In this document: positions 25,907-26,465 of the stretch, one piece after another
Layout of the letters: each line of letters starts with the position of its first letter
Numbering within the stretch: the first letter of the stretch is position 1
Origin: a virus
DNA: 64,000 nt
Direction: 5' to 3' (one strand)
IMG/VR virus record: IMGVR_UViG_3300022231_000010
Span: 1 to 64,000 of that record
Program-made: the position numbers and the translations under genes
The notes under the pieces: model-generated
Databases searched by the model: none
What the model was told of the DNA's origin: nothing
The model's input: only the letters and a program-made list of their open reading frames with translations

Positions 25907-26465
25907 ATAAAAACTAGCCCATGACAGACGGGATATAGTCTGTCGCTTCATTCCAGACTCAATAAGATGGCCCGCTAGCCCCGAGGCCAAAGATTAGAAA
26001 AATATCGGGGAAAGAGCAACATCGTTGCTTATTGGGTCTGGAATGAGGTGAAATGGAAACGGTCTTAATGCCGCACCTAGAGGTTGCAAGATGCCGCCAT
26101 CAGTAACCCGCCCATGGCAGAGGGGAAATACTCTGCCACTTCATTTCCATCCTCCAAGCAATGAGGGCACTGTAAGTCCTAGCTTAGTGCAGAAATAGCC
26201 GACGGGAGTTGGTGGCCAGCGCAATACTGGATTGCTTGTGACAAAGTGAGCGACCTGATCTGGAGGGTGGAAATGAGGTAACAGGATAAAGCTAAGCAAT
26301 CCCGGATGTAATGGTCTTCTAGTGATTAGGAATTCCCGCAGGGTTAACATGGGTTTAAATCCCATTCATTACAGCCACCTCTCCAAATAGCAGGCCAATT
26401 CACAGATAAGAGAAGATCAGGTAAGTCGTAAAGCCTCCTTCCGCCTGCTACCACTTTGCAAAGCC
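25907..26465 (+). ncRNA. Candidate large structured non-coding RNA (region A, unclassified)
   Basis: 559 nt with only tiny plus-strand ORFs. Many local hairpins (for example 26116..26137), a 17-bp long-range helix (26139..26155 with 26262..26278), and a tRNA-like 3' module. Confidence 0.45.
26308..26373 (+). ncRNA. Truncated tRNA-like element with no functional anticodon arm
   Basis: GTAATGG TC TTCT AGTGATT AGGA A TTCCCGCAGGGTTAAC ATGGG TTTAAAT CCCAT TCATTAC A. The acceptor, D and T arms fold. Only 16 nt sit where anticodon arm plus variable loop should be (CCC-GCA-GGG mini-hairpin). No encoded CCA. Confidence 0.35.

Follow-up and report, generated by a model that had tools for sequence, protein, structure and literature searches.

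Which role could a stretch of 559 nt without an open reading frame play between the genes of a phage? The stretch in question, here called region A (25907-26465), separates a gene encoding a protein of 146 aa (25466-25906) from an array of small paralogous genes on its 3' side, the first of which starts at 26466. All flanking genes are located on the + strand, as are the genes between approximately 15.1 and 40.0 kb, and the remaining genes of the phage are on the - strand. The source record is a complete virus of 64,031 bp with direct terminal repeats; the 64,000 nt of it that were analysed are referred to as the window. All features of region A described below are located on the + strand.

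For most of the phage proteins no match was found in Pfam or PHROGs, and the phage appears to represent an orphan lineage. The recognisable proteins include a RusA nuclease, a PTH2 peptidyl-tRNA hydrolase (20382-20888), a pyrophosphatase, an exonuclease and a primase-helicase. The gene of the latter (36006-38798) carries a LAGLIDADG homing-endonuclease (intein-like) insert at residues ~558-635. A Shine-Dalgarno-like 4-mer is located upstream of 10 of the 72 predicted genes, and the upstream regions are rich in A and C. This scarcity suggests a host which relies little on Shine-Dalgarno pairing.

The original prediction had described region A as free of ORFs, and this holds true. No plausible ORF was detected under three genetic codes (table 11, table 4 and TAG=Q), and the longest stop-to-stop frame on the + strand comprises 48 aa (table 11). 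The small frames of the region, including an antisense ORF of 74 aa, gave no Pfam match. Hidden coding under table 4 or TAG=Q was ruled out by these frame translations and the Pfam search.

As an RNA, the + strand folds well beyond chance and better than the - strand. The fold of the whole region on the + strand reached z = -4.5, with 0 of 100 shuffled sequences being equally stable, and the folds of two modules within it, described below, reached z = -7.3 and -4.5. The corresponding values for the - strand are -1.6 for the whole region and -4.5 and -2.6 for the modules. Apart from tRNA, no Rfam family matched at E <= 5 in region A or at E <= 1 in the window. A large ornate RNA of the GOLLD or ROOL type, or a similar one, was searched for with covariance models and gave no match. 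Region A does not give the impression of a single large ornate RNA; the signal originates in two duplicated modules, each consisting of a hairpin plus a helix. A retron msr-msd was considered as well and rejected, the neighbouring ORFs being 83-146 aa long and devoid of an RT domain.

The first module, M1, begins with a segment (25917-25955) which is paralogous to 26110-26149 in the second module, M2, with 33 of the 40 aligned positions being identical. It contains a hairpin (25922-25945) with a stem of 7-8 bp and the 8-nt loop GGGAUAUA (dG -11.1), which begins 16-17 nt past the stop codon of the gene 25466-25906. The counterpart in M2 (26116-26137) has a stem of 7-8 bp as well, the 8-nt loop GGGAAAUA, a dG of -14.0 and a pair probability of 1.0. 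The consensus of the loops is GGGAWAUA. Both hairpins had been noticed earlier, at 25923-25944 and 26116-26137, and are present at these sites. With a spacing of 0 nt in both modules, the hairpin is followed by the 5' strand of a long-range helix. In M1 (25945-25966/26028-26049) this helix comprises 22 bp, or 24 bp with the flanking pairs, encloses 61 nt and has a pair probability of 0.98. In M2 (26138-26156/26261-26279) it comprises 19 bp, encloses 104 nt and has a pair probability of 0.96. The latter is an extended form of a pairing of 17 bp (26139-26155/26262-26278) in the original prediction, which is thereby real; the M1 helix of 22-24 bp and the paralogy of the modules had been overlooked. 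Another hairpin proposed there, AGCAAC/GTTGCT, does exist at 26015-26029, but its pair probability is just 0.06, because a longer helix competes with it.

In 200 dinucleotide shuffles, the longest helix with G.U pairs allowed had a length of 9-15 bp. The helices of 24 and 19 bp in region A are therefore outside chance. Among the 25 longest inverted repeats listed for the genome, they are the most complementary ones at close range. The local alignment of M1 and M2 scored 43, compared with 16.8 +/- 2.2 and a maximum of 27 for shuffled sequences, none of 1000 reaching the observed score. Judged by their sequences, the two halves are paralogous modules.

Every stem substitution between M1 and M2 keeps the pairing. 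The hairpin stems differ by four substitutions, which make up two compensatory pairs, and the first pair of the long helix is G.U in M1 and A-U in M2. The basal 8 bp of the long helix have an identical sequence in both modules; the distal 11-14 bp are wholly different in sequence and fully paired in both copies. In the two helices, three pairs of M1 and two of M2 deviate from Watson-Crick pairing; read on the + strand, all five of these are G.U, and A.C pairs are absent. Outside of region A, at the 5' edge of another region of the genome called region B, the + strand contains a third member of this hairpin family (28218-28245). It has a 12-nt loop ending in AUA and a U-rich tail, and it differs from M1 and from M2 by pairing-preserving changes only. 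Taken together, the compensatory changes and the restriction of G.U pairs to the + strand point to selection for pairing in a + strand RNA.

Two other structures in the window should be mentioned at this point. A helix of 15 bp (30661-30675/30741-30755), which begins ~8 nt past the stop codon of the gene 29937-30653, encloses 65 nt; its single non-Watson-Crick pair is U.G and fits the + strand. It forms a third stalk-like element, without a preceding hairpin of the family. A hairpin of 14 bp (22160-22191, dG -20.4) is located at the start of a non-coding island of 680 bp and is directly followed on its 3' side by CTTCAT, as are the two module hairpins. This may be due to chance, as CTTCATYY occurs 37 times in the genome.

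A relationship of region A to region B had been suggested on account of the 7-mer AAGCAAT, and it was not borne out. A count over the whole genome yielded 29 occurrences compared with 10.9 expected, so the motif is common everywhere and its four copies in regions A and B are unremarkable. A blastn-short comparison of region A with region B revealed no similarity beyond chance 10-mers. The sole feature common to both regions is the one hairpin type at 28218-28245.

The tRNA-like module suggested for the 3' part of region A fared better. Positions 26308-26373 match the tRNA model RF00005 with 32.4 bits (E = 4e-4), above the gathering score of 29; this match was found in a search of 3.7 kb with lax filters, and two Rfam runs over the whole window do not list it. 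The element has an acceptor stem of 7 bp, a D stem of 4 bp and a T stem of 5 bp. In place of the anticodon arm there is a stem of 3 bp with a 3-nt loop, and a 7-nt anticodon loop is missing. The positions U8, A14, G15/C48, G18, U54, U55 and A58 are retained, and with them the contacts U8-A14, G18-U55, U54-A58 and G15-C48; the pair 19:56 is A:U instead of G:C. A U is found at position -1, the first pair of the acceptor stem is G1-C72, and no CCA is encoded after the discriminator, whereas the true tRNA-Arg and tRNA-Tyr of the phage both encode CCA. ARAGORN reported no tRNA here, neither at default settings nor at 80% thresholds. Folded alone, the element adopts the cloverleaf as its minimum-energy structure; in the ensemble of the full-length region the acceptor stem has a probability of 0.03 and the cloverleaf is disfavoured. 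The structural features expected of RNase P and RNase Z substrates are present, namely a coaxial helix of acceptor stem and T arm, an intact elbow and a suitable predicted cleavage context. With moderate confidence, we regard 26308-26373 as a genuine tRNA mimic, which would be unable to decode since it has no 7-nt anticodon loop.

Two related candidates were rejected. No tmRNA, standard or permuted, was found by ARAGORN at default settings or in Rfam, and a 'permuted' tmRNA call by ARAGORN at 70% thresholds is noise, being one of 152 such calls in the window. A homology of the module hairpins to the T-arm side of the tRNA mimic was considered too, and the alignment was unconvincing.

Downstream of the tRNA mimic lies a leader element (26388-26458). 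It consists of a closing helix of 8 bp (26388-26395/26443-26450, pair probability 0.97) followed by CCACTTTG at a distance of 8 nt from the start codon at 26466. Across the genome, the motif SCACTTTS is scarcer than expected, with four occurrences compared with 9.4. Three of these four copies, at positions 26451, 30933 and 34964, are located 8-15 nt upstream of the + strand gene starts at 26466, 30948 and 34986, each just past a helix. It may denote the site at which transcripts begin or at which near-leaderless mRNAs are processed. In addition, the tail of region A aligns with and resembles the end of the spacer before the gene at 30948 (30858-30950). From the motif at three gene starts and this similarity, we take the last ~80 nt to be a repeatedly used type of leader and not a part of a large RNA. 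Upstream of the same gene, at 30869-30935, a conserved element of ~65 nt was observed which recurs at 33563-33628, directly upstream of tRNA-Arg. Both copies have an identical start of 12 nt and a hairpin with compensatory stem changes, followed by TGAACACCT, and may represent a phage promoter or leader.

A further observation concerns the 3' strands of both long helices, each of which contains a frame of two codons, AUG AGG, followed by a stop codon (UGA or UAA; 26043-26051 and 26273-26281). Such frames recall the two-codon bar minigenes of phage lambda. A bar-like minigene within the helices, with the PTH2 protein of the phage as a partner, is only remotely conceivable. The link is unlikely because the helix sequesters the start codon, and the low number of genes with a Shine-Dalgarno-like motif mentioned above counts against it as well.

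How can these parts be combined? We tentatively favour the reading of region A as an intercistronic cassette for RNA processing and stability, located in a spacer that is transcribed as part of a long + strand RNA of the phage. The structural part of this reading was observed, comprising the helices with their strand bias, the paralogous modules with compensatory changes and the match to the tRNA model. Transcription through region A, the nucleases and the cut sites are what we infer in addition. Host RNase III would cut within each helix of about two turns, leaving the upstream RNA with an end a few bases past the hairpin. The hairpin at the foot of the stalk would then shield this 3' end from exonucleases. 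RNase P would act on the tRNA mimic at 26307/26308 and RNase Z behind position 26373, so that the RNA upstream and the mRNA of the array of small genes beginning at 26466 would be released from each other. The last ~80 nt would serve as a leader with a closing helix and the CCACTTT motif, in common with the genes that start at 30948 and 34986. Between 25906 and 26466, no canonical terminator with a clear U tract was found.

The ideal substrate of Escherichia coli RNase III has 22 bp, corresponding to two A-helical turns (PMC3867540). With 22-24 and 19 bp, the helices of region A are close to this size of ~20-22 bp of regular double-stranded RNA, a standard taken from E. coli which may not be that of the host. 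Two stalks and a tRNA mimic look redundant if the sole task is the separation of two mRNAs.

The same structural evidence is compatible with an operon of small stable non-coding RNAs, a possible but doubtful explanation. The helices would then be processing stalks from which RNase III excises RNAs of 61 and 104 nt, and the tRNA mimic would be a third RNA, for example a decoy for host enzymes or defence toxins which recognise the acceptor end or the elbow of tRNAs. The mimic itself speaks in favour of this, as the retained key positions and the co-varied A19:U56 suggest that a folded L-shape is under selection and not subject to simple decay. However, neither helix encloses a sequence whose folding exceeds that of shuffled ones (z = -0.66 for the 61 nt of M1 and z = +0.24 for the 104 nt of M2). 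The latter value also gives no support to the hairpins which the original prediction had placed within the ~105 nt enclosed by the M2 helix, their structure being at chance level. Antisense targets elsewhere in the phage genome were searched for, and no significant complementarity of the enclosed RNAs was found. Moreover, neither a promoter nor a terminator bounding a separate RNA gene was detected, and the Rfam searches gave no match besides tRNA.

Alternatively, region A could be non-functional debris tolerated where the genome is hypervariable. It would be composed of a decayed tRNA gene and an inverted-repeat element duplicated in tandem, the latter for example the remnant of a small mobile element or a product of template switching. 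We consider this unlikely. It would account for a tRNA mimic without anticodon loop and CCA which is rejected by ARAGORN, and for the unremarkable interior of the helices. The phage also contains several other long non-coding islands, and searches of viral, metagenome and genome collections yielded no homologue of region A. Searches with blastn and tblastn against GenBank phages revealed no relative of the region. Neither the flanking proteins nor an alignment built for the upstream protein gave a match in viral and metagenome contigs. A degenerate DNA pattern of hairpin and helix base had no match in viral contigs, and its 35 matches in metagenome and genome contigs all lack the stem and are thus due to chance. 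An exact T-arm pattern retrieved short T-arm matches only, with no further similarity to region A. Comparative support thus comes from paralogues within one genome only.

The neighbouring gene is nearly an orphan, too: a search of 5.8 billion protein clusters detected only two homologues of the protein encoded by 25466-25906. Conservation of the neighbourhood is therefore poor, although relatives of the phage exist. The capsid protein with a Calx-beta tail (2848-4632, - strand) has 42 homologues, several of which are 60-74% identical and encoded on contigs of 59-65 kb from read-archive assemblies, so the lineage has been sampled. Besides these relatives, a contig with 98% identity was seen in the homologue searches. 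Capsid homologues were not found in GenBank phages, and the capsid-protein alignment search in IMG/VR retrieved only two distant and partial relatives, which have neither the upstream gene nor any tRNA nor a match to region A. The lineage is present in public reads, yet essentially undescribed.

Against decay stand the differences between the hairpin copies, which are compensatory only; by a rough estimate, four stem substitutions would fall into two paired double changes with a probability of ~0.002. In addition, all wobble pairs suit one strand, and the positions for tertiary interactions of a tRNA are retained. A miniature inverted-repeat transposable element was rejected as a candidate: inverted repeats are present, but they have no flanking target-site duplication and no further copies in the genome, which equally weakens the idea of debris.

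Distinctly improbable, in our estimate, is a phage RNA operon of a new type, in which two small RNAs would be released from RNase III stalks marked by a hairpin specific to the phage, the tRNA mimic would act in trans (e.g. as a decoy for host tRNA-directed defence enzymes) and the hairpin family, with its conserved loop ending in AUA, would be a binding site for a phage protein.

Very improbable is a site that acts at the DNA level, with inverted repeats or hairpins extruded or bound by protein as in a replication origin, a recombination site or a hairpin-type promoter: the high complementarity of the repeats, the conservation of their outer 8 bp and of the hairpin loop, which suits a sequence-specific binding protein, and the tolerance of single-stranded DNA hairpins for G.T pairs are in line with it, but region A is not visibly AT-rich by eye, no iteron-like family of direct repeats is listed there, and wobble pairs that all suit one strand would not be anticipated at a site in duplex DNA. 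Hairpin promoters used by a virion RNA polymerase were also rejected, as the giant protein of 3,639 aa has no match, and thus no virion RNA polymerase signature, in Pfam or PHROGs; nothing therefore points to transcription from hairpin promoters.

The RNA structure of region A is real; it is strand-specific, internally duplicated and includes a tRNA mimic. The processing and stability cassette that we propose for it is a well-defined hypothesis rather than a discovery. If true, an orphan phage lineage would bound its transcripts by a compact and reusable RNA grammar of hairpin plus two-turn stalk, tRNA mimic and leader motif, and the region would offer mappable cut sites for the study of RNA processing in a group of phages whose genes are almost entirely unannotated.

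Several known systems can be compared with region A. Non-decoding RNAs with tRNA-like parts that are co-transcribed with other RNAs are exemplified by RNAs C and D (species 1 and 2), two stable products of the tRNA cluster of phage T4, and by YrlA-type Y RNAs, which mimic tRNA; none of these has a sequence or Rfam match to region A. In YrlA the anticodon side opens into the Ro-binding helix, whereas the mimic of region A is closed by a triloop at this position, and no Ro-like gene was found among the scanned phage proteins.

For the stalks, the early mRNAs of phage T7 provide a closer comparison. There, cleavage by RNase III leaves hairpins which stabilise the 3' ends. As in region A, about two turns of double strand are located between cistrons, and a hairpin would protect the upstream 3' end. 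The T7 sites, however, are local hairpins with an internal loop, whereas the helices of region A are perfect, close loops of 61 and 104 nt and have a separate conserved hairpin on their 5' side; cleavage of the latter is predicted only. In the way the strands of a helix come from distant flanks and enclose other RNA, region A resembles the processing stalks of rRNA, the long helices which flank 16S and 23S rRNA.

For the tRNA mimic, the canonical tRNA (RF00005) shares the acceptor stem, D arm, T arm and elbow positions, with a score above the gathering threshold, and differs by its 7-nt anticodon loop and CCA, neither of which is present in the element of region A. The punctuation of polycistronic transcripts by tRNAs is a known system comparable to the mimic. 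A tRNA-like element for 3'-end processing is also known from MALAT1, which gives rise to mascRNA. GUT15 is another tRNA-like RNA (PMC6152437). With MALAT1/mascRNA and GUT15 the element of region A shares a tRNA shape with reduced anticodon arm and the location downstream of a longer non-coding stretch, and in all of them RNase P and RNase Z could define RNA ends. Both of these systems are eukaryotic, whereas the element of region A is located in a phage between protein genes, where its processing would still be predicted from structure. Region A is thus best seen as a variant of known RNA-processing signals and not as a large ornate RNA. If this reading is true, a bacterial virus would join the eukaryotic long non-coding RNAs as a source of tRNA-like elements for end processing.
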